From NCBI GenBank assembly GCA_964532385.1, contig CAZHHW010000001.1, positions 27,268 through 91,267 on the forward strand: a DNA stretch of 64,000 bases, in the 5' to 3' direction. Positions 12,318-57,560 of the stretch are shown here, piece after piece (positions within the stretch are counted from its first letter, which is position 1; each line of letters starts with the position of its first letter). A model generated the notes under the pieces. That model did no database searches and was not told where the DNA came from. It saw only the letters and a program-made list of their open reading frames with translations. Position numbers and translations under genes: made by a program. This DNA is from an uncultured Gammaproteobacteria bacterium. GTDB lineage: Bacteria; Pseudomonadota; Gammaproteobacteria; SG8-11.

Positions 12318-12367
12318 TGCGGGCAGAAGGCTTTCTTTCCGTACGGCATGTCGATGAGGACCACAAG

Positions 12368-13539: not shown

Positions 13540-13566
13540 ATCGATCATCAGAACAATAAAAGGCAG

Positions 13567-14649
13567 TCAGCGTAACTGCGCGATGATTTTACGGATTGCC
13601 GTTTCATTTTCCTCGATGCGAGCGGTGAGTTGAAACTGCACCCGGGCACGATGCAGGTTCTGACCGGGCGCAGCGATTTTGAAATACACGTTGCCTTCAA
13701 GATGGTCGGCAAGAAATCGCAATCCAAGTTCAAAGGGGAGCAGCCGGATCGCGTCGTACATGAAGTCAAAATCTGGCCCTGTCAGAAAGCCGCGTGCGGC
13801 TTCGACATAGCCGTGCAGAATCGCACCGCATATTTCCAGATCGAATTGCGTTGCTTCCGAGTCGTGCGCGGATTCGCCGCCGCGGTTGCAACACGAGCGC
13901 AGGCAGTCGCCCAAGTCGTAGTGAATCAAGCCGGGTTGCACGGTGTCGAGGTCGATCAGACTCAGCACGCGGTCACTGTCCGCAGCGAATAAAAAATTGT
14001 CAAGTTTTGGATCGCCGTGGGTCGCGCGCAGCCGCAACGCGCCGGAGTTCTTGCCTTGTTCGAGAGTGCCGGCCAGAGCACGCCGGGCCGCGACAAAATC
14101 GCAGGCCGCCGTCGCAGGAGTGTCGATGGCGGTGCGCGCGCACACCGCGTCGAAGTGCGCCAGATAATCCGGCGCGATGTGGAAACCCGGCAGCGTGGTA
14201 TGCAAACGTTCGGCGGGCAAGGTATCGAGCAACGCGTGAAAACTGCCCAGCGCATGACCGATGTGATAGGCCTGCGTTGAGTCGGCGAGCGTTTCGAGTG
14301 CGCGCGTGCCGGCGATGAAATGCAAGGCGCGCCAGTAACAACCCTCGGCATCAAGCACGAAATCGCGTCCGTCGCGAGCGCGATACAGGCCGGGGATCTG
14401 CAACTGGGTGCCGGGTCGTGACGCGGTGTGTTGCGCATGATCAAGCAGGCAGCGCAGGTTTTCCATGATGTGTTGCGGTTGAGGAAAAACCTTGGGATTG
14501 ATACGTTGCAGGATGGCGCTGCGCGCGGGCACGCTGTCGATCACGGCGAGATAGGTATCGTTGATCAGACCGCGTCCGTACTCCTGCACATCGCGCAGCG
14601 GCGCACCGAAGTCGAACTGCCGCGCGATGGCCAACGCGGCGCCGTTCAC
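13567..14649 (-). CDS. APH/ChoK-like phosphotransferase (kinase fold)
   Basis: 'HGDPKLDN' is a Brenner-type catalytic motif and 'IDLD' is the metal-binding Asp. The gene overlaps the upstream M48 gene by 4 nt. Confidence 0.6.
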   Translation of the reverse strand: MNGAALAIARQFDFGAPLRDVQEYGRGLINDTYLAVIDSVPARSAILQRINPKVFPQPQHIMENLRCLLDHAQHTASRPGTQLQIPGLYRARDGRDFVLDAEGCYWRALHFIAGTRALETLADSTQAYHIGHALGSFHALLDTLPAERLHTTLPGFHIAPDYLAHFDAVCARTAIDTPATAACDFVAARRALAGTLEQGKNSGALRLRATHGDPKLDNFLFAADSDRVLSLIDLDTVQPGLIHYDLGDCLRSCCNRGGESAHDSEATQFDLEICGAILHGYVEAARGFLTGPDFDFMYDAIRLLPFELGLRFLADHLEGNVYFKIAAPGQNLHRARVQFQLTARIEENETAIRKIIAQLR

Positions 14650-18826: not shown

Positions 18827-19474
18827 ATGCCGGATAAGCGCCGCACCTCGGGCTCGCACAGCGACGAACGGAATTTTTTCCGCATCGACGATGAAGTGTA
18901 TCTGGAGTTCCGGGTATTGACTGAAGTGCCGCGCGATAAAAGCAAAATGCCCGCATCGCGCAAGGATGCGCGCACTCAGGATGTCCTATCCGACCTGACC
19001 GCGGTGAATGCGCAAATCCATCCCCTGATTGAAAGCATCCGACAGACCAGCCCGGCGGTCGCGCGTTGTCTTGAAGCCATCAATAAAAAGGTGGATGTGC
19101 TGGCGAAGGCCGTGTCGAAAAGCGGCGAACCGTTCAAAGCGGTCAAGCCGAATAAAAAAGTCAACCTCAGCGCCGGCGGCGTGTCGTTTAACGTCGGCAC
19201 CGAATTGCTCGCGGGTACGCCGGTGGAAGTGCGTCTGGCGGTGATTTCATCGAATCTGATCGTGACCGCTTACGGCGAAGTCACGCACTGCGAGCGTGAA
19301 GGACGCGACGCCGAGCAACCGTTTCGAGTCGGCATTAAATTTCCCTCGCTGACGGTCACCGAGCGGCAAGCCTTGTTTGCCCATGTGCTGGGCCGTCACA
19401 CCGAAAAGCTGCGCGGCGCCAATCGCAGCAGCGAAGAAAATGCCGCCGGCACAAATCCGGCGCCGAAAAAATAG
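18827..19474 (+). CDS. PilZ-domain c-di-GMP-binding protein
   Basis: N-terminal 'RNFFRID' is RxxxR-like, and 'NLSAGGVSF' is the D/NxSxxG motif. Confidence 0.6.
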   Translation: MPDKRRTSGSHSDERNFFRIDDEVYLEFRVLTEVPRDKSKMPASRKDARTQDVLSDLTAVNAQIHPLIESIRQTSPAVARCLEAINKKVDVLAKAVSKSGEPFKAVKPNKKVNLSAGGVSFNVGTELLAGTPVEVRLAVISSNLIVTAYGEVTHCEREGRDAEQPFRVGIKFPSLTVTERQALFAHVLGRHTEKLRGANRSSEENAAGTNPAPKK

Positions 19475-22911: not shown

Positions 22912-23346
22912 CTAGGGCAGTTTCGTTCCGTCGAGCTGTAGCGCAGCCAGGTCAAACGTATATGTCGCTTCGTAGGTTTCATTCTTGTCGCGTGCGATCA
23001 TCTTTGCTTTGTTAACGATCAGCGCATCGGCAAGGTCTGCCGTCTTGACACCATTTCCCGTCTTAATGTCCTTCGCCCCAACAAAATCATTCAGGGCGGA
23101 CCAAATGGCTTGTTGATTTTCAAATACAATATGGCTCTCTTCTAAAAGGCTCATTACCAAAGCTTGGATATCCTGCTTCGTTGCGCCGTAGCGCTTCCCT
23201 TTTAGGGTCCATATTGTTTCTGTTAAAACGACGTCGGTGATCAGAACATGACTTCCGCTTTCAAACACCTTTTTGGCTTTCGCTGTTTGCTGTTCATCAT
23301 CGTTAAGAACCCGTCGCAGCAAGACATTCGTGTCAACAGCAATCAC
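22912..23346 (-). CDS. vapC: PIN-domain toxin VapC
   Basis: 'IAVDTNVLLR' is the PIN N-terminus with an acidic Asp. The locally lower GC content and the 4-nt overlap with the upstream antitoxin gene support the call. Confidence 0.75.
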   Translation of the reverse strand: MIAVDTNVLLRRVLNDDEQQTAKAKKVFESGSHVLITDVVLTETIWTLKGKRYGATKQDIQALVMSLLEESHIVFENQQAIWSALNDFVGAKDIKTGNGVKTADLADALIVNKAKMIARDKNETYEATYTFDLAALQLDGTKLP

Positions 23347-23597
23347 GCGGCGCGCCTCTTGTTCTTTGTCGACGGCCGCCGCGTTGCAATGGTATCGAGC
23401 AAGGATTCCTCGTCGCTATAGCGACGATCGGCTTTCAGATGTTTTAGCACTCCAGCGCTCGCACCTTTGCGCTTTTTAAGCAGAGTGACCCGGCCTTCGT
23501 GCTCGACAAAATCAATCTCGTCACCGGGCTGGACATCAAGCCGGTCACACAATTCTTTTGGTATCGTAATTTGCCGCTTCGGGCTCAGCAGGGGCAT
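23343..23597 (-). CDS. vapB: AbrB/MazE/SpoVT-type antitoxin VapB
   Basis: The N-terminal swapped-hairpin region 'ITIPKELCDRLDVQPGDEIDF' is characteristic. Confidence 0.7.
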   Translation of the reverse strand: MPLLSPKRQITIPKELCDRLDVQPGDEIDFVEHEGRVTLLKKRKGASAGVLKHLKADRRYSDEESLLDTIATRRPSTKNKRRAA

Positions 23598-28468: not shown

Positions 28469-31306
28469 CTACAGCTTTTCCAGTTCCTGGTTCAAGCGTT
28501 CTTCGATGCGCTTTTTATAATTCAGGAAATTCACGATCTGCCATGGGTTGGGGGATTTGCCGCTGATGGCGCTGGGCGGCAAATCGATGTCGGTGATAAA
28601 AATCGGATAACGCAAACCGCTGCGCCGCTGCGAGATCACGAATTTGGCCACTTCGCGGAATAAATCCGCGCCGTATTCGAACGAGGCGAATTCCTTTTCG
28701 TCGCAAAATACCGTGAAAGCGTTATTGACGTCGTTAGGCGCGCTGATCACCTGCACGTTAAAATAACGGCGCGGCGCGAATTCACGCGTGCTGTGCCGGG
28801 TCTTGAGTTCAAAGCCGCCTTTGCGGTTGCCTGCGATTTCATAAAATTCAATACGCATATCCCCGTTTCTGGGGGTGGCGTCTTTCGCGGAAAAATTGAT
28901 TCGCTGCAGTGCCGATTCGAAAAACTGATCGAAATGATTGATCAGCGTGACTTCTTCGTAATAGGGCATGCGGTGCGTAAACAGCGAGCCCTGTTCATCG
29001 GCCACGTAAATGTCGACGTTCTTGCCCTGGATTTGGTAGAAAAATTGAATCGCGCCCGGGCGATTCGCGTTGAATATTGCGGGCAATGCCGTGTCGAGCA
29101 AGGCGTTGCGGTCGATGTGGGTCACTGCGAAGCCCGCGTGCGGTTCGGCCAGAAAACGCAGCAGTTCGCCGTAATTCTCTTTGCGTGTGTAAACAAAATT
29201 GCTGTTGTCGCGATGCACGATGAAATAGGACTGCTCGCATTGCAGAATGTAGCGGGCGTCCTCATGCGAGGCTTCGCCATAAAACGCTGCCAAGGTATCG
29301 GCAAACAATTCTTCGATGCGCTTGGCGATCGAGGGGCCATGATTGGATGAAAAACTATAGGCGCGCACCGGCGGCGGCGCAATCCGGCGCGTCTCGCCGG
29401 AGCGGCCCCATTGCAGGTATTGGCACAAGCAGTCCATGAGGCCTTGGATATGCTGGTGGCTGAAATGCAGCACTTCCTGCCAGCTCGTGACCAGCAACTG
29501 GTCGAAACTCAGCGCAAGATTCATCGCAAAACCGCTGTAATTAAGCACATCGGTGCGATTGCTGATAATGTCCGAGCCTATGCGGCTGCCGCGCGCCATG
29601 GGGTCGATACCGATGTTGACAAATATAATGGAGCTCAATATTTCCGGCGGGCTGGACAGGGCTTCCATGTTGGTGCCGGGGAGCTCGCCGCCGGGATAGC
29701 TTTGTTCCAGGCACGCGGTGATGGCGCGGAACTCCTTGACGTCGAGCTCGCTGTTTTGCGCGCGCACCGTCAATACGGTTTGCGCGCTCATGAGTTTATT
29801 GAAATGCAGCCACGCAATCAGCCCCAGCGGGCGGGTGGCGCGTTTGAGCACGGTTTCGGCCTTTTGCGCCGAGAGTTCCGCGCCGTGACTTAATGTCCAG
29901 GTGTCCTGGCCGTCGGCGCCCGCGATCTCTTGCAGCGCCAAGTGGGTTTCGATCAGGTCGGGCGCGATACCCCGGTTGACGATCTCGACTTTTCCGGCCT
30001 TGCGTTCGAAGGCCGCATACAGTTTGCGTCCCAGCACGGTCAGATCGCGTTGGCTGATTTGCGCCAGACGCGCCGTGCGGCGCGCGAAATCGGAAAGAAA
30101 CAAATAACTGTTGGTCAATTCGTCGACCAGGACTTTGCGTTCCTTCAGAACCCGGTTGATCTTCCAGGTATTGCGCGAATCCAGAATGACAAGGTGGGTG
30201 TTGTTCCAGCCCCAGCGTTCCGCCAGCTTATCCATCAATTCGCGCTGCCAGGTGAGGTGTTTGGCCTGCGCCGGGGTGCTCAGCGGCAGATTGACCTTGA
30301 AATAAAAGCAGCGCTGCACCAGCTCCAGCCGCTCCTGTTCCGCGCGCTGGTTTAAATACTGTTCGAGTTTCTCGATGAGCATGACGTAGGGATCGAGTCT
30401 GTCGAGAGAAATTTCTCCGCCATAAATTGCTTTCTTGAAGCGCGCGCATAGCAGATCGATGTTGGGAAATTCCTGCGCATAGGTTTCCATCAACATGATC
30501 TTGAGCACCGACTTGTAAGGCGAATCGATGCCTTTATAAACCTGCCACAATGCCGCGCCGAAAAATTCCTGCGGCGGAATGGTGCTTAAGCCGCCGAAGT
30601 CGATAATCTCATTGGCATTGACGAAACGCCGCGTGATCAGGCCATTCAAATAATTGTCATAGTCCGCCTCGTGTTCCGGCGGCACCAGCCACCACGCCGG
30701 ATAACGTCCGGCCACCAGCAGTCCGGTGCGGTAAAATTCCTCGAGCAATAAATGATGCTGGGCGGTGCCGCTGCTTTCGCTGCTGAGATTCAGGACTTCG
30801 CCGCTTTTGAATAGATCCGCATTCATCAAAAATATATGCACTTCAAGTCCCAGCGCCGCTGTCCACTGCTCGATCGCCGCGGCCTTTTTACTCAGCTCTT
30901 CGATCTGCGCGCGATTCAACGTGGGGCGATGACACAGCCACAGATCGAAATCGCTTTTTTCCGAATAGGCCACGGTGCCGCTGGAGCCCATTAAAAAAAT
31001 CGCGTGGATATCATGAGTGCGTAACGCGCGTTTTTTAAATTCAAACGTTTTGGAAAGACGCTTGGCGGCTTCCAGGCTTTTTTGGTTGGGCATGTAGTCG
31101 GCAATGCCGCTGGGCGCTTCCTTGGAAATATAGCCGGGCAGCATCGGATGATTCAGGTGGAACAACAACGGCAGCAATTCCAGAAAATCGCGCTGTTTCC
31201 AGCGTAACGCTTCCTGCACACGCAACAAGCGTTCGCGATTTAGCATGAAAAAGCGTTGCTTGATGGCGCGAATTTCCGTATTCGCGCTTAAAGGTTTGAG
31301 CTGCAT
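28469..31306 (-). CDS. cyaA: Class I adenylate cyclase
   Basis: The length (945 aa) and the N-terminal 'LLPLLFHLNHPMLPGY' match the enterobacterial CyaA 'LLPTLLHYHHPLMPGY' region. Confidence 0.85.
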   Translation of the reverse strand: MQLKPLSANTEIRAIKQRFFMLNRERLLRVQEALRWKQRDFLELLPLLFHLNHPMLPGYISKEAPSGIADYMPNQKSLEAAKRLSKTFEFKKRALRTHDIHAIFLMGSSGTVAYSEKSDFDLWLCHRPTLNRAQIEELSKKAAAIEQWTAALGLEVHIFLMNADLFKSGEVLNLSSESSGTAQHHLLLEEFYRTGLLVAGRYPAWWLVPPEHEADYDNYLNGLITRRFVNANEIIDFGGLSTIPPQEFFGAALWQVYKGIDSPYKSVLKIMLMETYAQEFPNIDLLCARFKKAIYGGEISLDRLDPYVMLIEKLEQYLNQRAEQERLELVQRCFYFKVNLPLSTPAQAKHLTWQRELMDKLAERWGWNNTHLVILDSRNTWKINRVLKERKVLVDELTNSYLFLSDFARRTARLAQISQRDLTVLGRKLYAAFERKAGKVEIVNRGIAPDLIETHLALQEIAGADGQDTWTLSHGAELSAQKAETVLKRATRPLGLIAWLHFNKLMSAQTVLTVRAQNSELDVKEFRAITACLEQSYPGGELPGTNMEALSSPPEILSSIIFVNIGIDPMARGSRIGSDIISNRTDVLNYSGFAMNLALSFDQLLVTSWQEVLHFSHQHIQGLMDCLCQYLQWGRSGETRRIAPPPVRAYSFSSNHGPSIAKRIEELFADTLAAFYGEASHEDARYILQCEQSYFIVHRDNSNFVYTRKENYGELLRFLAEPHAGFAVTHIDRNALLDTALPAIFNANRPGAIQFFYQIQGKNVDIYVADEQGSLFTHRMPYYEEVTLINHFDQFFESALQRINFSAKDATPRNGDMRIEFYEIAGNRKGGFELKTRHSTREFAPRRYFNVQVISAPNDVNNAFTVFCDEKEFASFEYGADLFREVAKFVISQRRSGLRYPIFITDIDLPPSAISGKSPNPWQIVNFLNYKKRIEERLNQELEKL

Positions 31307-31493
31307 AAGATTCCAGCGCTAATGTTTACCGGCGATGCATTGACTACACTGAGCCGGTCATCGTATGGCGTTTCATCGGGCGAAAGCGCGAATACTTAAG
31401 CCTTGGGACAGGTGGTGCCGATACATTGTTGTCCGTTTTTTTGCGTAATTTGCCGCGGACTTCCATTAAGGATTTTGAACCGGGAGAACAACC

Positions 31494-32309
31494 ATGCAGT
31501 TGATGAATCTGAATCAAGCGACGCAAGCGCTGCACTACGCGCCTATGGCGGTTTTGTTACTCGATCAGGAACGCCAGATCACTTGGGCGAACGAAGCATG
31601 TCATGTCTTTTTCGGCATACCGGCCGGAGAGCTGGCGGGCAAGAGTTTCAGCCAGATTACCGGCAATGTGTTGCAGCGCGTGGTGGGGCAGGAAGGTATT
31701 TACTATATCGCCGCCACCGGCGAACGCGCCGAGCGCTGGCTGCAATGCCGCGATCAGTCCGTGGAAAAAGGCGAGGCTAAATATTTTACCGACGTCACCG
31801 AGCTGCGGCGCGTGCAGGCACAGCAGGAACGCATCGCGCAGCAATTGCAGGAATTGGCAACAGTTGACCCCAAGACAGGTTTGTATACGCCGCGCGCGTT
31901 GATGCAAAACCTCGAGCCGCTGGTATCGCGCAGCCGCCGTTACAGCAATCCGCTCTCGATCGTGGTGATGTCGGTGGCGGGTCTTGCGGAATACGATCAT
32001 CTGCCGCAAGGTCCCGGCGCGCAGCAGGTGTTGCTGGCGGTGGGCCATTTACTTAAGGATCAGTTGCGCTGGGCGGACATCATCAGCCGTTCGTCGAATC
32101 ATGAGTTTGTGATGGTGCTGCCCGAGACGTCGACCGAGGCCACGCAAAAGCTGATCGACAAAATCCGTTCGCGTCTGGGCAGCCTGGTGGTGCCCGAAGG
32201 GCCGGAAAAAGGCTATGCGATCGATGCCCGCTTTGGGGTGGCAAGCTGGCAAAAAGGCGATGACGCGCAGCAGTTGTTGCAGCGCGCCTATAACGCAGGC
32301 GCCCGGTAA
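31494..32309 (+). CDS. PAS domain protein with degenerate GGDEF domain that retains the I-site
   Basis: 'RWADIISRSSNHEFVMVLPETS' aligns to the canonical 'RxxD-xxx-RYGGEEF...LP.T'. The active-site GG(D/E)EF is replaced by SNHEF while the RxxD I-site is retained. Confidence 0.65.
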   Translation: MQLMNLNQATQALHYAPMAVLLLDQERQITWANEACHVFFGIPAGELAGKSFSQITGNVLQRVVGQEGIYYIAATGERAERWLQCRDQSVEKGEAKYFTDVTELRRVQAQQERIAQQLQELATVDPKTGLYTPRALMQNLEPLVSRSRRYSNPLSIVVMSVAGLAEYDHLPQGPGAQQVLLAVGHLLKDQLRWADIISRSSNHEFVMVLPETSTEATQKLIDKIRSRLGSLVVPEGPEKGYAIDARFGVASWQKGDDAQQLLQRAYNAGAR

Positions 32310-32434
32310 GAATCGCGGACATAAAACGGCGTCTTTTGCCGCAATGCGGCGTTAGGGCTAGGTCTCGTCATTGCACCTTGCTCTGCGCCAAAACCCGTCC
32401 GTTATATTTGTTCCGATATGGGCGACGCAGACCT

Positions 32435-33025
32435 CTAACCGGAGCTGCGCGGCTTCAACACCAGGGCCGCCAGCCCGGCGAGCGCGCCGAATAAATGCGC
32501 ATCCACCACGACTTCGCCCCCCGCCAGGCTCGCGGTGCCCGGCATGGCGCCGTGCCATTGCTCCCATGCAAGTTTGAGTGTAATCAAGCCCAGCAGCCAC
32601 CAGCCTTCGCGTAACTTAAGCCGGATCTCCGCCATGCAACCGGCCACGAAGTAGCCGTGCAGCGCGCCGGACAAACCCACGTACCAGCCCACTTCGGGTG
32701 TGAGCAGCAACAGCCCCGCGCCGGTGGCCAAGGACGTCACCAGCACGATGACGAGCCATTGCACGTGGGTGAACCGCGCGCCGAAAAACATCCAGATCAA
32801 CAGCAGGCCGGCCAGATTCAGTAGCAGATGCGTGAAGCCCAGATGCAGGAAGTTGCCGCTCAGCAAGCGCCAGACTTCGCCGTTCAGGATCGCCTCGCGG
32901 TCGTAGCGCAACAGCTGCTGGACACGATCGCCGCCTAATTGCCCGGCAATGGCCAGCGCCGCGACGCTCAGCGGCACCACATACAGTTTCGATTGTCGAA
33001 GCAGGGAGTGCAGAGGCATGGGCAT
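32435..33025 (-). CDS. Short rhomboid-family intramembrane serine protease (rhombosortase-like)
   Basis: 196 aa with six TM helices. The catalytic 'GLSGALHG' is the GxSG motif. The TM6 His lies in 'DAHLFGALAG'. The size fits rhombosortase rather than GlpG. Confidence 0.55.
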   Translation of the reverse strand: MPMPLHSLLRQSKLYVVPLSVAALAIAGQLGGDRVQQLLRYDREAILNGEVWRLLSGNFLHLGFTHLLLNLAGLLLIWMFFGARFTHVQWLVIVLVTSLATGAGLLLLTPEVGWYVGLSGALHGYFVAGCMAEIRLKLREGWWLLGLITLKLAWEQWHGAMPGTASLAGGEVVVDAHLFGALAGLAALVLKPRSSG

Positions 33026-33160
33026 TCACGCGTGGATGGGGCAAGTAGTATAGGAACGGCGGACGGGCCGATCAAACCGCAATTGCATTTGTTATAGTAG
33101 GCCGCCCGTGGAGGCTTGCCGGGGAAACGGTTTGGCAATTAATTTTCGAGGAATCAATTT

Positions 33161-33604
33161 ATGCCGCAGTTCGTAAGCAAAACGCGTATGCGCGGTTTTA
33201 CCCTGATTGAAATCATGGTCGTGGTGGTGATCCTGGGCATCCTCGCCGCGATCGTGGTGCCCAAAGTGATGGACCGTCCGGATACGGCGCGCATCGCCAA
33301 GGCCAAACAGGACGTGCGCGCGCTGGAAAGCGCGTTGAATCTCTACAAGCTCGACAATTTTGTGTATCCGACCACGGATCAAGGGCTGGAAGCGCTGGTG
33401 CAAAAACCCAGCGGCAGCCCGGAACCCAAGAACTGGAAGGAAGGCGGCTACATTCCGCGCATGCCCAAGGACCCGTGGGGTAATCCGTACCAGTATCTCA
33501 ATCCCGGCACGCACGGCGCGGTGGATATTTATTCGCTGGGCGCGGACAACCAGGTCGGCGGAGAAGGGGCCAGTGCGGACATTGGTAACTGGAACATCGA
33601 ATAA
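33161..33604 (+). CDS. gspG: Type II secretion major pseudopilin GspG
   Basis: '[22 protein letters not shown]' is a prepilin leader plus N-methyl-Phe site. The C-terminal 'GNPY' region is characteristic. Confidence 0.9.
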
Positions 33605-33665
33605 GCCCTCTCCTCCGCCGCACAGGAATGTGCAACGCGAAGCGCAGGGATGCGCGAGAGCGGCT

Positions 33666-33724
33666 TCGAAAATAAGGTGGGGAGGAAAGGCAGCAGTTCA
33701 CCCCTCCTCATTTTCGAGGAGGGG
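33666..33724. repeat. REP-like nested hairpin (CCCCTCCTC-attttc-GAGGAGGGG core) in the gspG-gspH spacer
   Basis: Read directly. Confidence 0.55.
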
Positions 33725-33790
33725 TGGACGCGCAGCGGACGGGGTGGTGGGGTGGGTATACCCAGCACTGCCACGGTCTCAAAGTAGCCC

Positions 33791-34477
33791 TTGAACAGCT
33801 TCCCACTCGAGTCAATGGACGTGAAAACTAAATTATCTTGCTGTGGCACGACCGAGGGGAGATTTCAGCGCCGCTGTGCGGGCTTTACCCTGATCGAGCT
33901 GATGGTGGTGATTTTCATCATCGGCATCATTGCGGGCTACGCCACCTTGTCGGTGGGGCAAAGTCATACGCGCGTGCTGCAAGACGAAATCAAGCGTTTA
34001 CAAAGTCTGCTGACGCTGGCCGGCGACGAAGCGGTGTTGCAGTCCGAGGAGCTTGCGATCGAGGTCTACCGCAACGGGTATCGCTTCATGCATCTGGAGC
34101 AGGTGGAGCAGGAATGGGAATGGCAGCCGGTGCTGGACAATGCGATTTTTCGCGTGCGCTGTTTCCCGGAGGGCATTGAACTGGGTGCGCAGATCGAAGG
34201 CACCCCCGCCGTGCTGGAACAATTGGATTGCGCTGCCGAGGCGGCCAAGAGCGACAAAGAAAAAAATCCCGACGGGATTAAAGATGAAAAGTCGGTAACC
34301 AATAAATCCACGAAACCCGAAGATATTCCACCGCGCATTTTTCTGCTGTCGAGCGGTGAAATGACGCCGTTCGAATTGACCTTGTCGCTGCCCGATAAAA
34401 GCAGCTTGCGCCTGGCCGGTGATTTGACCGGCAAACTCACACAGCCGGTACCGGGCGATGCAAAGAAACAGTCCTAA
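33791..34477 (+). CDS. gspH: Type II secretion minor pseudopilin GspH
   Basis: 'AGFTLIELMVVIFIIGIIAG' is present. An alternative start at the Met at 33815 is possible. Confidence 0.7.
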   Translation: MNSFPLESMDVKTKLSCCGTTEGRFQRRCAGFTLIELMVVIFIIGIIAGYATLSVGQSHTRVLQDEIKRLQSLLTLAGDEAVLQSEELAIEVYRNGYRFMHLEQVEQEWEWQPVLDNAIFRVRCFPEGIELGAQIEGTPAVLEQLDCAAEAAKSDKEKNPDGIKDEKSVTNKSTKPEDIPPRIFLLSSGEMTPFELTLSLPDKSSLRLAGDLTGKLTQPVPGDAKKQS

Positions 34478-34838
34478 TGCGCGCGGGTTCACCTTGCTGG
34501 AAGTGCTGGTCGCGCTCGCCATCCTGGCGCTGGCGCTGGCGGCGGGCATCAAAACAGCCGGGTCAAATATCGACAATGCCGCTTATCTGCGCGACCGCAC
34601 GCTGGCGCATTGGGTGGCCATGAACAAACTCACTGAAATGCAGGTGTTCAATAAATTTCCCAGTGCCGGGAGCAGCGAGCATGGCTCTTTGTTGCTGGCG
34701 GGGTCGGAGTGGTATTGGACGGTGCAAACCACCGTCAACAAGTCGATCCCAACCTATGAATTTGGTGTGGCCAACATCGAAGTACGCCACACCGAAGATG
34801 CGAAACAGCCGTTGGCCACATTGAGCGCGGCGTACTAG
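34458..34838 (+). CDS. gspI: Type II secretion minor pseudopilin GspI
   Basis: 'RGFTLLEVLVALAILALAL' is present. The protein is small (126 aa). Confidence 0.8.
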   Translation: MQRNSPNARGFTLLEVLVALAILALALAAGIKTAGSNIDNAAYLRDRTLAHWVAMNKLTEMQVFNKFPSAGSSEHGSLLLAGSEWYWTVQTTVNKSIPTYEFGVANIEVRHTEDAKQPLATLSAAY

Positions 34839-34839
34839 C

Positions 34840-35556
34840 GTGGTTCGCCTGCCTATGCCTATCAGGAATTTTTTGAGACGCGACATGATGGATCAAACAA
34901 TGCACTCCTTCCCCCTGCAAGGGAGAAGGAGTGCGTTGAGTCGTGGAGCGAATTTTTCGGGCGGGTTCACCCTGATCGAGTTGATCGTCGCGATGGCGGT
35001 GTTCGCGGTTATGGCGACCATGGCGTACAGCGGTTTGCAATCGGTGCTGGATGCGCGCGCGCGCACCGAGCAGCATGCGCAGCAACTCGCTGCGTTGCAA
35101 ACCGCATTTTTCTGGCTGGGCAAAGATATCGAACAAGCGGTGCCGCGCGGCGTGCGCGATCCCTATGGCGAACCGGTCAAAGCGCTGCTGGCCGAGCCCA
35201 CGGCGGAATACGGCCTGGAGTTGACACATGCCGGCTGGAGCAATCCGTTTGCCAGCGGCAAACGCCAGCGCAGCATGCTGCAACGCGTTGCCTACGGTGT
35301 GCATGAAAAGAAATTGCTGCGTAAATACTGGTTCGATCTGGACCGTGAACACAACAGCGCGGTGTTTGAGACCGTGTTGCTCGAAGGCGTGAGCGCGCTG
35401 GAAATGCGTTACGTCGACCATAATCTTCAGTGGCAAACCCAATGGCCGCCGCTGGGCAGCAAAGAGGTTCTGCCCGTGGCAGTGGAGATCAGTCTTGACA
35501 TTGAAGGCTTCGGCAAAATCGCGCGCCTGTTTCGGGTGCCGGAGGGACCGGCGTGA
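34840..35556 (+). CDS. gspJ: Type II secretion minor pseudopilin GspJ. The start is ambiguous: ATG at 34840 or 34900, or TTG at 34936.
   Basis: 'GGFTLIELIVAMAVFAVMA' is present. A REP-like hairpin (34902..34934) sits inside the 5' region of the longest ORF. Confidence 0.75.
   Translation: MVRLPMPIRNFLRRDMMDQTMHSFPLQGRRSALSRGANFSGGFTLIELIVAMAVFAVMATMAYSGLQSVLDARARTEQHAQQLAALQTAFFWLGKDIEQAVPRGVRDPYGEPVKALLAEPTAEYGLELTHAGWSNPFASGKRQRSMLQRVAYGVHEKKLLRKYWFDLDREHNSAVFETVLLEGVSALEMRYVDHNLQWQTQWPPLGSKEVLPVAVEISLDIEGFGKIARLFRVPEGPA
34902..34934. repeat. REP-like hairpin GCACTCCTTC-CCCCTGCAAGGGA-GAAGGAGTGC
   Basis: Read directly. The arm is a 10-bp perfect inverted repeat. Confidence 0.55.
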
Positions 35557-36629
35557 CGGTGCATGATCCTACGCAGCGCGGTGTCGCGTTGATCACCGCT
35601 TTGCTGGTGATTGCGCTGGTGGCGGCGGCGGCCGTGGCGATGTCGTCGCGTCAGCAACTCGATATCCGTCGCACGGCGAATATCCTGCAACGCGATCAGG
35701 CCTACGTGTACGCGGAGGGCGCGGAGATGATGGCGCGCGCGGTGTTGGCAAAAGACAATCCTGCGGAAGATGACAAAGAAGAAGATTGGGGCAAAAGCGG
35801 CGTGAGCATTCCGTTCCAGGGCGGCTTGCTGACCGGCGCGCTGGAAGATTTACAGGGGCGTTTCAATTTGAACAATGTCGTGAAAGGCGGTGTGGTGTAT
35901 GCGCCGGATGTCGGCCGCTTGACCCGTTTATTGACAATTTTGAGAGGTAAGAACCCTGACGAGGATGTGTGGAAAAACGCCGAGCCCGCTGATTTGGCCC
36001 ATGCCGTGGTGGACTGGATTGATACCGACAGCAACGTGACGACGCCGGGCGGCGCGGAGGACAGCGACTATCTCCAGACCGAACGCCCCTACCGCGCCGC
36101 CAACACGCCGATGGCATCCAGCAGCGAGCTGCTTTTGGTGCGCGGATTCACGCCCGCAATTTATCGTGAAGTGGCGCCTTATGTGACCACGCTGGCGGAG
36201 CACACCTTGATCAACGTCAACACAGCAAAACTGGAAGTGCTGCGCACGCTTGATGAAGACATCAATTGCATCGATGTGACCAAGCTGGGGCGTGACTCGG
36301 AGGTACTGACGGCGAGTACGAATGATACGTCTACTGAAGTTAAGCCGAAGATTTTCAAGGATGCAGAAGAGTTTCTGGTAGCAGCCGGTGCCGGATGCCA
36401 ATTAGTCGGGTTTGCCAAAACACCGAAACCAGGCAGCACACCCCCACCCGCCGGGGCAACGCAAGAACAACCTGCCGCAGTCCTCAGCGTTAACACCAAT
36501 TACTTCCAGGTGAACGCTTATGCCGAAGTGGGTCCGGAAGATCATCGGGTCAAAGTGAAGTTATATAGCGTGCTACAGCGCAAGGCAGGTAAAATCGCCA
36601 CGCTCTCGCGCGCGCAAGGATTTGAGTAA
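35553..36629 (+). CDS. gspK: Type II secretion minor pseudopilin GspK
   Basis: 'RGVALITALLVIALVAA' N-terminus. Size and position after gspJ with a 4-nt overlap. Confidence 0.8.
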   Translation: MTVHDPTQRGVALITALLVIALVAAAAVAMSSRQQLDIRRTANILQRDQAYVYAEGAEMMARAVLAKDNPAEDDKEEDWGKSGVSIPFQGGLLTGALEDLQGRFNLNNVVKGGVVYAPDVGRLTRLLTILRGKNPDEDVWKNAEPADLAHAVVDWIDTDSNVTTPGGAEDSDYLQTERPYRAANTPMASSSELLLVRGFTPAIYREVAPYVTTLAEHTLINVNTAKLEVLRTLDEDINCIDVTKLGRDSEVLTASTNDTSTEVKPKIFKDAEEFLVAAGAGCQLVGFAKTPKPGSTPPPAGATQEQPAAVLSVNTNYFQVNAYAEVGPEDHRVKVKLYSVLQRKAGKIATLSRAQGFE

Positions 36630-37868
36630 GTGGCCAAAAAACTTTTGATTCGTTTTCCCCCGCTGTCCCCGGGTGCCGATCCGGCCCTGGTGGATTGGAT
36701 GCGGACCAGCGGCGACGGCGTGCAGGAAGATATCCGGCGAGGTTCGCTCGACGAGGTGGGCGCGCAGATTCATGGCAGCCGCGTGATCGTGCTGGTGCCC
36801 GGCATTGACGTTTTGTTGCTGAACGCGCAGGTGCCGACGCAAAATCGCCAGCGTTTGCTCAAGGCCATGCCGTTTCTGCTTGAAGAGCAGCTGGCCAGCG
36901 ACATCGAAGACCTGCACTTCGCGCCCGGCGAACGGCGCGGCGACGGTACCGTGCCGTGCGCGGTGGTCGCGCGCGCGCGCATGGACGAGTGGCTGGCGCG
37001 TCTGCATGAATTCCATATCCAGCCGGATGTGCTGGCGGTGGACTTTCTCGCCCTGGCGTACGAGCCGGGGGTATGGACGTTGTACAAAGATGCCAACGGC
37101 GTGTCGATGCGCAGCGGTTTGCAGTCGGGTCTGTTCGTGGAGCTGGACAATCTGGTGCCGATGCTGGAAGTCGCCTTCGAGCAGGCCGGTGCGCAACGCC
37201 CGGCGCGTTTGCGGATCCTCGACGCCGACCCGCAAACCGCGCTGCCGGACCTTACCGCGCTTAACATCGAATTCACGCACGAACCCTACGACGCGCAGGC
37301 GTTTCTGCAACTGGCGCACGACATCGACCGCACCAATACCATCAATCTGTTGCAAGGCGACTACAGCCGCCGCGAACAAATGGGCAAGCTCTGGCGCCCC
37401 TGGCTGCCGGTGGCGGCGCTCGCCGGGGCCTTCATCGTGTTGCATTTGAGTCTGAGCGCGATGGATTACCTGCGTTATAAAAAACAGGTTCAAGAACTTC
37501 AGGCCGGGATCGAGAAAGTGTATCTGGAGACCTTTCCGAACGAGAAGCGGGTACCGAATGCGAAGGTGCAGATGGAGCAGCACCTCAAAGAACTGCGCGG
37601 CGGCACTAAAGGCGGCGGCGCCGGGTTCCTCGGTTTGCTGGGTGCGACCGCAAACATATTAAAGAACACGCCGGGACTGGAATTGCGCAGCGTGCGTTAC
37701 AAGGAAGGCAAGCTTGACATTGACATGACGGTGCGCGATTTGCAGATTCTGGATAAATTGAAACAGTTGCTCACGCAACAGGCTGCGGTGGATGTGGAGA
37801 TTGTGTCGGCCAATGCGCGCGGTGACATTGTCGAGAGCCGCTTGCAAATACGGGGGCACGGTTCATGA
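36630..37868 (+). CDS. gspL: Type II secretion inner-membrane protein GspL (GTG start)
   Basis: The cytoplasmic actin-like N-terminal domain, a single TM helix near residue 255 and operon position support the call. Confidence 0.8.
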   Translation: MAKKLLIRFPPLSPGADPALVDWMRTSGDGVQEDIRRGSLDEVGAQIHGSRVIVLVPGIDVLLLNAQVPTQNRQRLLKAMPFLLEEQLASDIEDLHFAPGERRGDGTVPCAVVARARMDEWLARLHEFHIQPDVLAVDFLALAYEPGVWTLYKDANGVSMRSGLQSGLFVELDNLVPMLEVAFEQAGAQRPARLRILDADPQTALPDLTALNIEFTHEPYDAQAFLQLAHDIDRTNTINLLQGDYSRREQMGKLWRPWLPVAALAGAFIVLHLSLSAMDYLRYKKQVQELQAGIEKVYLETFPNEKRVPNAKVQMEQHLKELRGGTKGGGAGFLGLLGATANILKNTPGLELRSVRYKEGKLDIDMTVRDLQILDKLKQLLTQQAAVDVEIVSANARGDIVESRLQIRGHGS

Positions 37869-38359
37869 AAGCTTGGTTTGCGGAACTGCAACCGCGCGAG
37901 CGGACGATGGTCATTGCCGGCGCGATCGCGTTGGGCATCCTGATTTTTTACGCCGCCATTTGGGATCCCTTGACCAGCGGCGCGAGCAACAAGGCGGCCG
38001 CGGTGGAAGAGCAGCAGAAATTGCTGCAATGGATGCAAAAATCGGCGGAAGACGTGAAGCGTCTGCGCCCGGCCGGCGCCGTCACCGCGCAATTACCGCC
38101 CGGGCAGAGTTTGCTGGGCGTGATCGACCAGACCTCGAAGGGCGCCAATCTGGGCGGAGCGGTCAAGCGCGTCAAACCCGAAGGTGAAAATAAAGTCAGC
38201 GTATGGCTGGAAGACGCGGGCTTCGACGACACCATGCAATGGCTCGAGAATTTGCATCGGACCTACGGCGTGGAAGTTGACAATATTGTGGTCGACCGGA
38301 AGAACAATCCCGGCAAGGTGGATGCGCGCATTGAGTTCACCGGTGGTGCGCATGCGTAA
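37865..38359 (+). CDS. gspM: Type II secretion protein GspM
   Basis: N-terminal TM helix, ~160 aa, ATGA overlap with gspL. Confidence 0.75.
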   Translation: MKAWFAELQPRERTMVIAGAIALGILIFYAAIWDPLTSGASNKAAAVEEQQKLLQWMQKSAEDVKRLRPAGAVTAQLPPGQSLLGVIDQTSKGANLGGAVKRVKPEGENKVSVWLEDAGFDDTMQWLENLHRTYGVEVDNIVVDRKNNPGKVDARIEFTGGAHA

Positions 38360-39155
38360 ATGGCAGATGGCCGCGCTGGGCGCGGGTCTATATCTGGTGT
38401 TTTTGATCGTGACGATTCCCGCGCCTCTGGCGTATGGCGTCGTCAAAAAGAAACTGGGCCCCGAAACGTCGCTTTTGCTGGGCAGCGTGTCCGGTACCTT
38501 GTGGTCGGGACGCGCCTCGCCGGCCCTGATCGGCGGCCAGCGCGTCGATTCGCTGACCTGGAAAATTCAGCCGCTCGCCTTGCTCATCGGCCGGGTTCAG
38601 TCTCAGATCGAATTCCGCTACGGCGACAGTTATGGAAAAGCGCAGGCGGCGCGCGGGTTCACCGGAAAAATTTACGCTAAAGACATCGAGGCGCGTATCG
38701 ATTTGCAACGCATGCGCTTGCTGTCGAAACTTTTACCACTGGGTATGGAAGGCTCGCTGTTAGTGAATATGAAGGAGCTCGATGTCGATCGCCGCTCGAT
38801 CGTCAGCGCGGAGGGTGTGCTGGCCTGGGATGCGGCGGTCATTACGGTGCCGTCGCGTACCGAATTCGGCAATCTGCGCGTAACCGTCACCACGGACAAC
38901 GACGGTGTGAAAGCGGCTCTCACCGATGGGGGCGGGCCTTTACAGGCGGAAGGTTTATTTAACGTAACGCGCGAGGGCAATTACAAATTCACCGGGGCGT
39001 TCGCCGCGCGCGATCCCAATCAACGCATGCTGGTGCAAGGTTTGCAAATGCTCGGCCGCCAAGGTGCCGACGGGAAAGTCAGTATTGCGGCCAACGGCGC
39101 CTTGGCGCAGCTGTTTGGTTATTTCGAAAAACCGGAAGCCGCGCCGGCCAAGTAG
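38352..39155 (+). CDS. gspN: Type II secretion protein GspN
   Basis: The 'MRKWQMAALGAGLYLVFLIV' start overlaps the gspM stop. The signal-anchor plus beta-rich periplasmic domain is typical of GspN. Confidence 0.65.
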   Translation: MRKWQMAALGAGLYLVFLIVTIPAPLAYGVVKKKLGPETSLLLGSVSGTLWSGRASPALIGGQRVDSLTWKIQPLALLIGRVQSQIEFRYGDSYGKAQAARGFTGKIYAKDIEARIDLQRMRLLSKLLPLGMEGSLLVNMKELDVDRRSIVSAEGVLAWDAAVITVPSRTEFGNLRVTVTTDNDGVKAALTDGGGPLQAEGLFNVTREGNYKFTGAFAARDPNQRMLVQGLQMLGRQGADGKVSIAANGALAQLFGYFEKPEAAPAK

Positions 39156-39168: not shown

Positions 39169-39192
39169 TCTCCCGCCGCCGCGGCGGCGGGA
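39169..39192. terminator. Perfect 24-nt palindrome TCTCCCGCCGCC/GGCGGCGGGAGA between convergent genes (bidirectional terminator candidate)
   Basis: Read directly. Both flanks are AT-rich. Confidence 0.5.
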
Positions 39193-39203
39193 GAAGGTTA
39201 AAA

Positions 39204-39596
39204 CTAAAAGTTATGCGACACGATATTGGTGTTGCCGGCGATGGTGACCTGGGTATAAAGATTGGACAGCTTTAAGCGCGCATAGATTTCGTCGGTACCC
39301 AGATCTTCATTCAGCAGACCTTCGCCTACCGTGGCTTCGAATGCGATATTCTCGGAAGCGCTGGGCGTGCCGTCCGGAAAAAATTTTGCGCTTGGAATGG
39401 TGTACAGGAAATCATCCGCGCCCGTCAGTCCCGAGTCGTCGCCCCATAACTGACACACCAGTTTGAATTGAAGACCCTGTTTCATCTGCGCCATTTCAAA
39501 CGCGGTGAAATTGGCTTTGCAAGTGACCATGACTTTTGCCGACTTGGCGGTGTGATTGTGATTGATAGTCAAATTGCGGTGGGTGATCGTTGCCAT
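39204..39596 (-). CDS. Hypothetical cytoplasmic protein in a locally low-GC stretch
   Basis: No signal peptide and no recognisable motif. GC content is visibly lower than in the flanks. Confidence 0.4.
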   Translation of the reverse strand: MATITHRNLTINHNHTAKSAKVMVTCKANFTAFEMAQMKQGLQFKLVCQLWGDDSGLTGADDFLYTIPSAKFFPDGTPSASENIAFEATVGEGLLNEDLGTDEIYARLKLSNLYTQVTIAGNTNIVSHNF

Positions 39597-40681: not shown

Positions 40682-41463
40682 GCCGCCGGTGGTGCGGGAC
40701 GGGTGCTTAAATACAGCAGCGAGCACAAGGTCATGCACAAGCGCGTGTATATGGTGTAGGTGGTCAGCGCCGACACCGCAAACAGGACCATCGGTATGGC
40801 CAATACGATCAGGATGTGTTCGCCGATATTGCCGCCACCCCGAGCGTAACTGGTGAGCGCGACACCCAGGAAGATCATGGAGGCGGAAACCGCGCGGCTG
40901 GTGCGCCACAGGCGGAGTTGTTCCTGCAATTGTTCCAGGCTTGCGCCGGGCGCATTGAAAAAGAGATAGGTGCAAATGAAGGAATGCAGGCGGTTATAGC
41001 GTCCGCGCTGTGCCAGCCAGCGCCCCGGTTTCCACCAGGACAACGGTGAATCATTAACGAATTGCTGGTAGTCGTCATCCAGCAGGTCGTGGTGAGTTCG
41101 CATCAAGTCACCGATCCAGGCGTAGTCCTTGCGTGCGAGCCAGCGTCTGAAGGCGAGGATTTCAAATACGGTGAAAAGCAACGGCGCGGTCAAATCCAGC
41201 AGCAAACCGGTGCAGAAAATCAGGATCACCGACAGCGTCGCGATGATGGTGCTGAGCACCGGTTCCAGCAGCTTGTTGTCCGCAAACGGCGCGGTGACGC
41301 TGGCGAAGCGCTCCGCCCAGTGTTGCCAAAGTGAAATGACCTGTGGAAAGGTAATGTCAAGATTGGCTATTTGCAACGTCAGCAGCGTTGCAAAAATAAA
41401 CAGATTAAGCAGCAACACGCTGCCGGTAACGCCATAGTCCGTGAGCAGAGCAAACGGCTTCAT
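40678..41463 (-). CDS. Hypothetical polytopic membrane protein
   Basis: The start is set at 'MKPFALLTDYG', whose ATG overlaps the stop of the upstream small ORF (ATGA). The tracked 5' extension is R/G-rich and judged to be non-coding. Confidence 0.45.
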   Translation of the reverse strand: MKPFALLTDYGVTGSVLLLNLFIFATLLTLQIANLDITFPQVISLWQHWAERFASVTAPFADNKLLEPVLSTIIATLSVILIFCTGLLLDLTAPLLFTVFEILAFRRWLARKDYAWIGDLMRTHHDLLDDDYQQFVNDSPLSWWKPGRWLAQRGRYNRLHSFICTYLFFNAPGASLEQLQEQLRLWRTSRAVSASMIFLGVALTSYARGGGNIGEHILIVLAIPMVLFAVSALTTYTIYTRLCMTLCSLLYLSTRPAPPAA

Positions 41464-41735
41464 CGTGCGGAGGGCCGCCGCATCCACCATATCGACACGC
41501 CGCCGGCGATGCAGCCGATGATGTTGCCCAGGCCCGGCAACACGGTGCCCAGGGCCGCGCCGCCCAAACAGCCTGCGCTGGCGTCGATCCAGGTATGCGT
41601 CTCGGCTTTTTGCGCTTCTCCCACAGGCAGCAGCGCCACCGCTGTGGGGTTGGGTGAATTGTCCATGGCCATAACGGCCGGGCTGCTGAGTAAGCAGCAC
41701 ATCAGAAAACAGGTATTTGCAGTCGCGGTATGCAT
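41460..41735 (-). CDS. Small exported glycine-zipper protein (91 aa precursor)
   Basis: The Shine-Dalgarno GAGGGAG lies 7 nt before ATG 'MHTATANTCFLMCCLLSSPAVMA|MD', which has a Sec signal with an AxA cleavage site. The mature part 'SAGCLGGAALGTVLPGLGNIIGCIAGGVSIW' is a GxxxG zipper. Third codon positions are GC-biased. Confidence 0.45.
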   Translation of the reverse strand: MHTATANTCFLMCCLLSSPAVMAMDNSPNPTAVALLPVGEAQKAETHTWIDASAGCLGGAALGTVLPGLGNIIGCIAGGVSIWWMRRPSAR

Positions 41736-41908
41736 GAGCTGACTCCCTCGGGTGACAGGCATTTACGGCGACAGCAGGTTCGCCGGTTTTTTAGATGTAG
41801 GTATTATAGCTGGTGAGTGCGCGGGCGAGAGTGGTCGAATCAGTGCTGCGCGCGGTGCGATATTCACCTTTGCCCGGGTGCCGCGCGTTTGAGCGTAGAA
41901 TCCTGCCG

Positions 41909-49847: not shown

Positions 49848-50480
49848 ATGGCAAAGCCAGCAGCAAAAGAAAGTAAAGACAAAGGCGAAGAAAAAGAAGA
49901 CGTCGAAGTCGAAGAAGGCGACGAAAAACCACGCAAGAAAAAGCCCTGGCTCATGATCGGTGTGATTGCGGTGTCGTCGATTCTGGTGTTGTCGGCGGGA
50001 ATCGGCGGCGCACTCTATTTTACCGGCGGCAAACATAAATCGGCGGAGACTTCCGCGAAAGCGAAAGGCGGCAAAGCGGCCAAGGCCGACGCCGATGCCG
50101 AAGAAAATGCCGATGCGCCCGACGCGGCGGAAGCGGACAGCGAAAAAAGCGACAAGCCTGCGCCGGCCAACTACGTCTCTTTAGAACCGCCCTTTGTTGT
50201 CAATTTCGAGGGCAATAGCTCCGCGCGGTTTTTACAGATCAGCGTCGAAGTCATGTCGCGCAACGCGGAATATATCGACCACATCAAAAAGCACATGCCT
50301 GTGATTCGCAATAATCTGGTGCTGTTGTTTGGCAGCCAGACCTACGACAAGGTCAACACCCTCAAAGGCAAGGAAGACCTGCGTCAAAGAGCGCTGACCG
50401 AGGTGCAAAAAATTCTCGAAGAGGAAACCGGCGATGCCGGTGTGGAAGCGTTGTACTTCACCAGTTTTGTAATGCAATAA
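49848..50480 (+). CDS. fliL: Flagellar basal-body-associated protein FliL
   Basis: Charged N-terminus, single TM helix, and position before fliM. Confidence 0.8.
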   Translation: MAKPAAKESKDKGEEKEDVEVEEGDEKPRKKKPWLMIGVIAVSSILVLSAGIGGALYFTGGKHKSAETSAKAKGGKAAKADADAEENADAPDAAEADSEKSDKPAPANYVSLEPPFVVNFEGNSSARFLQISVEVMSRNAEYIDHIKKHMPVIRNNLVLLFGSQTYDKVNTLKGKEDLRQRALTEVQKILEEETGDAGVEALYFTSFVMQ

Positions 50481-50489
50481 GGCGCCGAC

Positions 50490-51491
50490 ATGTCTGTCTC
50501 CGACTTACTTTCACAGGATGAAATCGACGCCCTGCTGCACGGGGTCTCCAGCGGCGATGTCGATACCGATGCCGCGGCGGATGACGGCCCTGACGGCATC
50601 CGCGGCTATGACTTCACCAGCCAGGACCGCATCGTGCGCGGGCGTATGCCCACGCTGGAAATGGTCAACGAACGCTTTGCGCGTTATTTCCGTATCAGCT
50701 TGTTCAACATGCTGCGGCGCACGCCGGAAATCGCCGTGGGCGGTGTGCAGATGCTCAAATTCGCCGAATACGTGCACAGCCTGTTTGTGCCCACCAGCCT
50801 GAACATGGTGCGGGTGTTGCCATTACGCGGCACCGCGTTGCTGGTGTTCGACCCCAAGCTGGTGTTCATCGTGGTGGATAATTTTTTCGGCGGCGACGGA
50901 CGCTTTCACGCCAAGATCGAAGGCCGCGAGTTCACGCCGACCGAGCTGCGCGTCATCAATATGCTGATGCTGCAGTGCTTCAAGGACATGAAAGAAGCCT
51001 GGACGCCGGTGATGAACGTGGATTTTGAATACATCAACTCCGAAGTGAATCCGCATTTTGCCAACATCGTCAGCCCCACCGAAGTGGTGGTGGTGAGTAC
51101 CTTCCACATCGAGCTGGAAGGCGGCAGCGGCGACCTGCACGTGACCATGCCGTATTCCATGCTCGAGCCGATTCGCGATGTGCTCGACGCCGGGGTGCAA
51201 AGCGATCGTTCGGAGCGCGACGAACGCTGGATCGTCGCGCTGCGCGAGGAAATGCAATCCGCCAAAATCGAGCTGAGCGTCAGTCTGGGAACCGCCGAAT
51301 TGCCGCTGCGCGACATGCTGACCTTGAAGGCGGGCGACATTATTCCATTTGAATTGCCGCCGCTGGTCACCGTGCGCGCGGAAGATGTGCCGGTGTTTCG
51401 CGGCGTATACGGCATAGCCAACGGCAATGCCGCGGTGCAAACGGTGGAGATGATTACCAACCACCAGAAACGCAGTTTGGTAGTGGTCTAG
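50490..51491 (+). CDS. fliM: Flagellar motor switch protein FliM
   Basis: 'LSQDEIDALL' N-terminus, length 333 aa. Confidence 0.9.
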   Translation: MSVSDLLSQDEIDALLHGVSSGDVDTDAAADDGPDGIRGYDFTSQDRIVRGRMPTLEMVNERFARYFRISLFNMLRRTPEIAVGGVQMLKFAEYVHSLFVPTSLNMVRVLPLRGTALLVFDPKLVFIVVDNFFGGDGRFHAKIEGREFTPTELRVINMLMLQCFKDMKEAWTPVMNVDFEYINSEVNPHFANIVSPTEVVVVSTFHIELEGGSGDLHVTMPYSMLEPIRDVLDAGVQSDRSERDERWIVALREEMQSAKIELSVSLGTAELPLRDMLTLKAGDIIPFELPPLVTVRAEDVPVFRGVYGIANGNAAVQTVEMITNHQKRSLVVV

Positions 51492-51507
51492 TGACAGGAG
51501 TAATGCA

Positions 51508-53095: not shown

Positions 53096-53113
53096 TGTCG
53101 AGACGAGGTCGAT

Positions 53114-53383: not shown

Positions 53384-53391
53384 AGACTTAG

Positions 53392-55307: not shown

Positions 55308-55314
55308 TTAAAGT

Positions 55315-55363: not shown

Positions 55364-55389
55364 AAGAAAATTTGTAACCGAGGTAGGAC

Positions 55390-57477: not shown

Positions 57478-57498
57478 ATAGGAGAGGAGCGCGGCATA

Positions 57499-57547: not shown

Positions 57548-57560
57548 GTAAGCAGTTTCG

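Follow-up and report, generated by a model that had tools for sequence, protein, structure and literature searches.

A rhombosortase gene divergently paired with gspGHIJKLMN in an uncultured gammaproteobacterium and in related loci

Introduction

The biochemistry of rhombosortase cleavage and attachment has been established only for VesB of Vibrio cholerae. [quoted passage not shown] 2018, PMC6219818). The functional link between rhombosortase and the T2SS has so far rested on these V. cholerae experiments, comparative genomics having previously tied rhombosortase to no particular T2SS. In the survey of Haft & Varghese (2011, PMC3237569), adjacency of the rhombosortase gene rrtA was reported only with single-copy GlyGly-CTERM targets, and the authors could link rhombosortase to no subclass of T2SS. 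The survey also named gammaproteobacteria that have rhombosortase without detectable GlyGly-CTERM proteins, HTCC5015 and Thioalkalivibrio sulfidophilus HL-EbGr7, a list that leaves a small door open for non-canonical substrates. In Acinetobacter and Klebsiella a further T2SS protein, GspN, has recently been shown to be needed specifically when the T2SS cargo is lipid-anchored (PMC12802150).

We analysed an rrtA gene that stands head to head with gspGHIJKLMN in a 64-kb stretch of DNA from an uncultured gammaproteobacterium (the window). Like RrtA/RssP of V. cholerae (VC1981), its product belongs to the TIGR03902 family and has the short six-helix architecture and the Ser/His dyad; by analogy, the same role would be expected here, the cutting of GlyGly-CTERM tails before T2SS-dependent surface localisation. 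The two differ in that the head-to-head pairing with gspG-N is a feature of the window, none having been described for Vibrio. With GlpG of Escherichia coli and Haemophilus the window protein shares the rhomboid fold (TM-score 0.6-0.7, ~23% identity), the serine of TM4, the histidine of TM6 and the H..N pattern of TM2. Unlike GlpG, it fails both GlpG equivalog models, is without the N-terminal cytoplasmic domain, and carries a loop 5 motif, KLxWEQ..G..PG, and a block, AGG.V.VDAHL, that are rhombosortase-specific. Dedicated rhombosortase systems, in which rrtA lies beside a single GlyGly-CTERM target, resemble this locus in that the neighbourhood reflects a partnership of the sorting enzyme; there the neighbour is the substrate, whereas here it is the gspG-N machine, and a substrate was present in only one of the related loci described below. 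Split T2SS loci with GspN, such as those of Acinetobacter, are similar in that the T2SS genes do not form one operon and gspN is present. The window differs from these in where the split falls, gspG-N against gspC-F and gspO, and in the attachment of rrtA to the G-N half.

Identity and predicted structure of RrtA

The initial annotation had described a 196-aa rhomboid protease with six transmembrane segments, a GxSG serine and a TM6 histidine, and had taken it for a rhombosortase rather than GlpG. The gene and its possible starts are as follows.

32435-33025, minus strand: rrtA (rhombosortase), intact ORF of 196 aa
33019, minus strand: alternative start of rrtA, giving 194 aa

The second ATG is the start used in the gene calls of a 99%-identical metagenomic relative, which yields the 194-aa form. 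In an NCBIfam HMM search, the check that the annotation had proposed, the product scored 161.3 bits on the rhombosortase equivalog TIGR03902, against a cut-off of 84, with a match spanning residues 37-188, or positions 2-153 of the 154 in the model. An identity as GlpG was rejected by both GlpG models (TIGR04239, 26.2 bits against a cut-off of 250; NF008155, 22.1 against 335). The score on the Pfam Rhomboid family was 52.2 bits. The catalytic residues were checked in the sequence: Ser119, in the G-L-S-G of TM4, is encoded at 32671-32669; His177, in the D-A-H-L-F-G of TM6, at 32497-32495; and His66 and Asn70 of TM2 within 32830-32816. All four residues were invariant in an alignment of the window protein with 23 homologues at 40-82% identity, as were the blocks WYVGLSG.LH and GG.V.V..H that are typical of rhombosortases.

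An AlphaFold2 model built on this 24-sequence alignment (mean pLDDT 94.7, pTM 0.89) contained six long helices, at residues 5-30, 64-84, 87-108, 119-135, 139-158 and 174-189, and no GlpG-type N-terminal cytoplasmic domain. RrtA is thus modelled as a compact six-transmembrane rhomboid core that has no extra domains and falls within the class size of ~190-210 aa. When the model was searched against the PDB with Foldseek, the top matches were GlpG rhomboid cores only, at the TM-scores and identity given above. By sequence, the PDB returned no rhombosortase structure; GlpG was the sole match, with weak E-values.

Both claims of the annotation were borne out, and we regard the gene at 32435-33025 on the minus strand as almost certainly a rhombosortase; the 196-aa ORF should be called that and not a generic rhomboid. 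Both NCBI and JGI already annotate homologues of RrtA as rhombosortases, and the protein itself is an ordinary member of a curated, already known family.

The gspG-N operon and its flanks

The genes beside rrtA, and the elements between and around them, are listed in order along the window.

28469-31306: class I adenylate cyclase (cyaA), next after the PAS-GGDEF gene (Pfam/NCBIfam)
31494-32309: PAS-GGDEF gene, convergent with rrtA (Pfam/NCBIfam)
33026-33160: divergent region common to rrtA and gspG, 135 bp (141 bp with the alternative rrtA start)
33047-33075, minus strand: sigma-70-like candidate promoter for rrtA, TTGATC-17 nt-TATACT, a consensus match
33090-33098, plus strand: extended -10-like element for gspG, TGtTATAGT, seen by eye
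33161-33604, plus strand: gspG, major pseudopilin with a prepilin leader ending before FTLIE (TIGR01710, 199.9 bits against 88.85)
33791-34477, plus strand: gspH, minor pseudopilin (TIGR01708, 105 bits against 80)
34458-34838, plus strand: gspI (TIGR01707, 85.1 bits against 44.35)
34840-35556, plus strand: gspJ (TIGR01711, 141.1 bits against 64.85)
35553-36629, plus strand: gspK (NF037980, 240.5 bits against 130)
36630-37868, plus strand: gspL (TIGR01709, 268.3 bits against 65)
37865-38359, plus strand: gspM, assigned on position and size and on an orthologue with Pfam T2SSM
38352-39155, plus strand: gspN, 267 aa (Pfam T2SSN, 124.5 bits against 29.6)
39170-39198: GC-rich hairpin between the gspN stop and the convergent ORF130 stop, seen by eye
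39204-39596, minus strand: ORF130, 130 aa and without a signal peptide, between gspN and an EamA gene

The run gspG-H-I-J-K-L-M-N occupies 33161-39155 on the plus strand. The product of gspM gave GspM-family matches of 51.5 and 20 bits, under the NCBIfam cut-offs; its 164-aa orthologue in a close relative (locus L082) has the Pfam T2SSM domain. The HMM matches of GspH and GspJ start at residues 30 and 41, respectively, and the true starts of both genes are probably internal to the ORFs listed. For gspN, the most likely start is the ATG at 38352, which overlaps the end of gspM. The hairpin at 39170-39198 likely marks the end of the operon.

The remainder of the T2SS was not encountered. Pfam scans of the ~50 larger ORFs of the window yielded no secretin, T2SSE or T2SSF domain, the GspE Walker-A motif was absent from all six frames of the 64 kb, and none of the scanned ORFs encoded GspD, GspE, GspF, GspC or the prepilin peptidase GspO, so that a complete T2SS is not present in the window. 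The earlier statement that gspGHIJKLMN is split from gspCDEF therefore stands, and gspC, gspD, gspE, gspF and gspO are presumably elsewhere in the genome.

Within the operon, the gspG-gspH spacer (33605-33790) is predicted to form a highly structured RNA (-93.8 kcal/mol; z = -4.5 against shuffled sequences) and holds a perfect 14-bp hairpin near 33696-33729. Judged from its sequence, this spacer could be a partial terminator or a stabilising element inside the operon, with the effect of lifting GspG above the minor pseudopilins. Scanned from end to end against Rfam and for tRNA genes, the window gave no match, and the Rfam result takes in this spacer. Outside the operon, the PAS-GGDEF and cyaA neighbours are retained in two close relatives (L082 and L084), and genes for second messengers are dense around the locus (18827-19474, 28469-32309 and 57561-60167), encoding a PilZ protein, the class I adenylate cyclase, the PAS-GGDEF protein and a GGDEF-EAL protein. 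The genome GCA_016200445.1, with an RrtA 83% identical to that of the window, shares the neighbourhood of this locus. ORF130 had no Pfam, NCBIfam or PDB sequence match; it is missing from another close relative (L001), in which the EamA gene abuts gspN.

The 135-bp divergent region

The spacer had been given as 135 bp, head to head, and this is exact, with gspG starting at 33161. In a consensus scan of 32200-33900, the candidate rrtA promoter was the sole promoter-like match; its position suits rrtA, and that of the -10-like element on the plus strand suits gspG. Its -10 and -35 blocks are kept in L084, L001 and L082, the RrtA proteins of which are 81-99% identical to that of the window. The -35 position of gspG overlaps that of rrtA, and the two -10 hexamers, if both are real, lie back to back, ~46 bp apart. 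When the spacer was aligned with those of four relatives (99, 83, 81 and 70% RrtA identity), the gspG block TTTG(T/C)TATA(G/T)T and the ribosome-binding site GAGGA were invariant throughout this 70-99% range, and the sequence between the promoter and ribosome-binding blocks diverged. No CRP or sigma-54 site was seen by eye in the spacer. A compact spacer with conserved blocks of this kind fits coordinated transcription of rrtA and gspG-N.

The gspG leader also contains a 33-bp insert on the plus strand (33113-33145) with a hairpin at 33116-33138, in single copy in the window. It is present in the 99% relative (L084) and absent from L001 and L082, and is thus lineage-specific.

Conservation of the gene pair among relatives

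Relatives were collected by a pattern and tblastn scan with the rhombosortase alignment, taking one genome per GTDB species, and gene order was assigned by tblastn with the window proteins in the best 80 of at least 575 relatives. The divergent arrangement of rrtA and gspG, followed by gspH-M, was found in 47 of these 80 loci, or 47 of the 77 that could be assessed, since three had too little upstream sequence to judge. The linked loci carry the labels Woeseiaceae/Woeseia, Granulosicoccaceae/Granulosicoccus, Steroidobacteraceae, Ectothiorhodospiraceae, Thiohalomonadales, Chromatiales and unclassified Gammaproteobacteria; identity to the window ranges from 42 to 81% for RrtA and from 54 to 95% for GspG. 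An iterative HMM search placed a GspN homologue directly after gspM in 39 of the 40 linked loci that reach gspM, the single exception being cut by a contig end. To our reading of the searchable literature, which returned no published report of rrtA-gsp synteny, the conserved gene order is what is new here; the T2SS dependence of rhombosortase substrates is already published.

The surroundings of this block vary. Among the linked loci, the position directly downstream of rrtA is occupied by at least 13 different genes, including fabD-fabG-fabF-pabB-mltG in Woeseiaceae-type loci, GNAT-like and recG-like genes (both by eye), and the GGDEF gene in the lineage of the window, and several different genes lie beyond gspN. 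The variety downstream of rrtA indicates that the nine-gene block persists while its surroundings change. In two types of locus a candidate for an additional conserved operon member beyond gspN was considered and rejected, a CysQ/inositol-monophosphatase-type housekeeping gene (by eye) in loci labelled Granulosicoccaceae and an AddA-like helicase in Woeseiaceae-type loci. No conserved cargo gene was found among the linked loci.

The pairing is not universal. In about 30 of the 77 assessable relatives, rrtA lies away from the gsp genes, after rpsB/map/glnD. A neighbour-joining tree of 81 RrtA sequences, rooted at its midpoint and built without outgroup or support values, placed the linked state on deep branches on both sides of the root and the unlinked loci in two nested clades, in the larger of which rrtA follows rpsB, map and glnD. 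This distribution suggests that the linkage of rrtA with gspG is old and was lost at least twice. The coupling of rrtA to the pseudopilus operon that had been proposed at the outset thus holds as gene linkage, with 47 of 80 related loci and conserved promoter-like elements in the close relatives behind it, and with the exceptions just described.

Two gene neighbourhoods deserve separate mention. In Woeseiaceae-type loci (for example L028, 10541-17337), the lipid-synthesis genes fabD, fabG and fabF, and then pabB and mltG, come after rrtA on its own strand; in the unlinked clade (L081 and L002), rrtA after rpsB/map/glnD is close to cdsA and rseP. The proximity of rrtA to phospholipid genes may be coincidence.

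The persistence of the pair over several families, with RrtA identity falling to ~42% and both outer flanks reshuffled, counts against a reading in which a true rhombosortase lies beside gspG through inherited gene order, under independent regulation and with no functional consequence. A spacer that stays short (median ~115 bp over the 47 linked loci) and the conservation of both promoter-like blocks in close relatives weigh in the same direction. That reading does account for the ~30 relatives with rrtA in a housekeeping context, and for the outcome of a k-mer search of the 47 linked spacers, in which no universal motif was found and the enriched k-mers were confined to 12-13 loci of one related subgroup. 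It is also helped by V. cholerae, in which the partnership works without linkage: rssP lies at a distance from the eps operon, which means that function does not depend on linkage. We consider this reading unlikely, and it is the one that survives best among the alternatives to a functional pairing of RrtA with gspG-N.

GlyGly-CTERM substrates

No GlyGly-CTERM tail was found in any ORF of the window by two pattern scans and a reading of the C-termini, in agreement with the first inspection, which had seen no substrate there. The one candidate that was followed up, at 41460-41762 on the minus strand, had no TIGR03501 match and was rejected. The same scans were extended to the 80 related loci (~1.3 Mb), each of which represents ~0.5% of a genome. 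Over the window and these loci, what the patterns picked up was mostly the C-terminus of RrtA itself or of an EamA transporter, and a candidate in L050 (16043-16552) had no match to TIGR03501.

One protein in the 80 loci was convincing. The gene at 1576-3150 on the minus strand of L077 encodes a 524-aa product with a signal-peptide-like N-terminus, the tail of which reads ...TGGSGGGAFNPLFLSLFALAGLVRNRGRKSA and which ends in GGSGGGAFNPLFLSLFALAGLVRNRGRK; with TIGR03501 the tail scored 15.5 bits, a value equal to the curated cut-off. In L077, rrtA is head to head with gspG, and the cargo gene shares the strand of gspN and lies ~1 kb downstream of it. Because of this protein, at least one organism with the linked architecture can be said to have a classical cargo. 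Elsewhere the scarcity of matches says little, few being expected when each locus samples only ~0.5% of a genome. As a separate observation, a GspE/PilB-type Walker-A signature was found in a single ORF of the 80 loci, and this too belongs to L077: it encodes 753 aa and lies at 12096-14357 on the minus strand, ~2 kb downstream of rrtA.

Could RrtA instead act on a non-classical substrate, one with a divergent C-terminal signal or a bitopic part of the T2SS such as GspL, GspM, GspN or GspC? The physical linkage to machine genes and not to cargo genes would suit this idea, as would the lack of GlyGly-CTERM proteins in the window and in nearly all related flanks and the two rhombosortase-bearing species, HTCC5015 and T. 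sulfidophilus HL-EbGr7, in which none was detected (Haft & Varghese 2011). Yet the flanks cover so little of each genome that few matches would be expected in any case, a linked locus (L077) has a canonical GlyGly-CTERM protein, and RrtA is an ordinary full-length match to TIGR03902. GspG-N were themselves considered as substrates and rejected, as none of these proteins has at its C-terminus the tripartite tail, made up of a Gly-rich motif, then a transmembrane helix, then a cluster of basic residues. We think a non-classical substrate improbable, clearly more so than inherited gene order, and return to a canonical RrtA working with classical cargo.

A model for RrtA and the gspG-N half of the T2SS

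Building on what was observed, namely the family and fold of the protein, its catalytic residues, and the order of the genes with its conservation, we favour as the probable explanation a canonical RrtA, encoded divergently from gspG-N and probably made together with it, the cargo of which would be encoded elsewhere in the genome. A canonical function is the most likely one for RrtA by analogy with its characterised counterpart, and the biochemical steps that follow are taken from V. cholerae. RrtA would cleave the C-terminal GlyGly-CTERM anchor of Sec-exported cargo after the second Gly; the new C-terminus would receive a glycerophosphoethanolamine-containing moiety; and the T2SS would then move the processed protein to the cell surface. 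Expression of rrtA and of gspGHIJKLMN, the genes for the pseudopilus, for the platform proteins L and M of the inner membrane and for GspN, would start from closely spaced back-to-back promoters in the 135-bp spacer, and because of these promoters the enzyme and the G-N half of the machine are probably made together. Co-expression is here a prediction from the layout and conservation of the spacer. The GlyGly-CTERM cargo genes predicted for this genome, and gspC/D/E/F/O, would lie outside the window.

As a speculation, GspN may plausibly have a part in handling lipidated products of rhombosortase, given that gspN is constantly present in the linked block. The requirement of GspN for lipid-anchored cargo in other bacteria raises the question of whether it also handles rhombosortase products, and we found no study in which a role of GspN with rhombosortase cargo was tested. 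A more ambitious reading would see in rrtA and gspGHIJKLMN a module of nine genes that is ancestral and has been kept by selection in a large group of Gammaproteobacteria from the sea and from sediments, most of them uncultured (Woeseiaceae, Granulosicoccaceae, Steroidobacteraceae, Thiohalomonadales and relatives). The module would mark a rhombosortase-associated T2SS subclass in which the pseudopilus, GspL/M and a lipid-shielding GspN are co-expressed with RrtA, in a pathway dedicated to displaying C-terminally lipidated proteins on the surface. We put this forward tentatively, as a possibility that we are more inclined to doubt than to accept; if true, it would be the T2SS subclass that Haft & Varghese (2011) sought and did not find.

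There is finally the notion that RrtA is an ordinary housekeeping rhomboid, a fragment or a GlpG-like quality-control protease set next to gspG by chance, which is hardly credible: membership of Pfam Rhomboid and the standing of GlpG as the nearest solved structure are what it can draw on, and it is refuted by the HMM scores on the GlpG models and on TIGR03902, by a complete ORF with six helices and no GlpG-type N-terminal domain, and by the conserved synteny with gsp genes.

The conserved pairing in many environmental gammaproteobacteria lends independent genomic-context support to the partnership of rhombosortase with the T2SS, and it directs attention to tractable isolates, such as those of Granulosicoccus and Woeseia. 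Complete genomes of the linked type include Granulosicoccus OZ245050.1 and Granulosicoccus sp. 3-233. The result is a coherent one, of use in annotation and in choosing model organisms, and will be no surprise to the specialist.

Other features of the window

Several further features were recorded along the 64 kb. Two DUF5666 proteins with lipoprotein-like N-termini, encoded at 6709-8151 on the minus strand and 9198-10568 on the plus strand, flank a DUF6502 gene (8365-9201). A PIN-domain toxin and MazE/AbrB-type antitoxin pair is located at 22912-23597 on the minus strand, where third-position GC is locally lower. Genes for flagellar export and the flagellar switch are clustered at 49848-63945: fliL, fliM, fliN, a FliP-family ORF, fliR, flhB, flhA, a 422-aa ORF, and genes for an flhF-like SRP GTPase and for an flhG/MinD-like ATPase; the ORF with the FliP-family domain is unusually long, at 406 aa.
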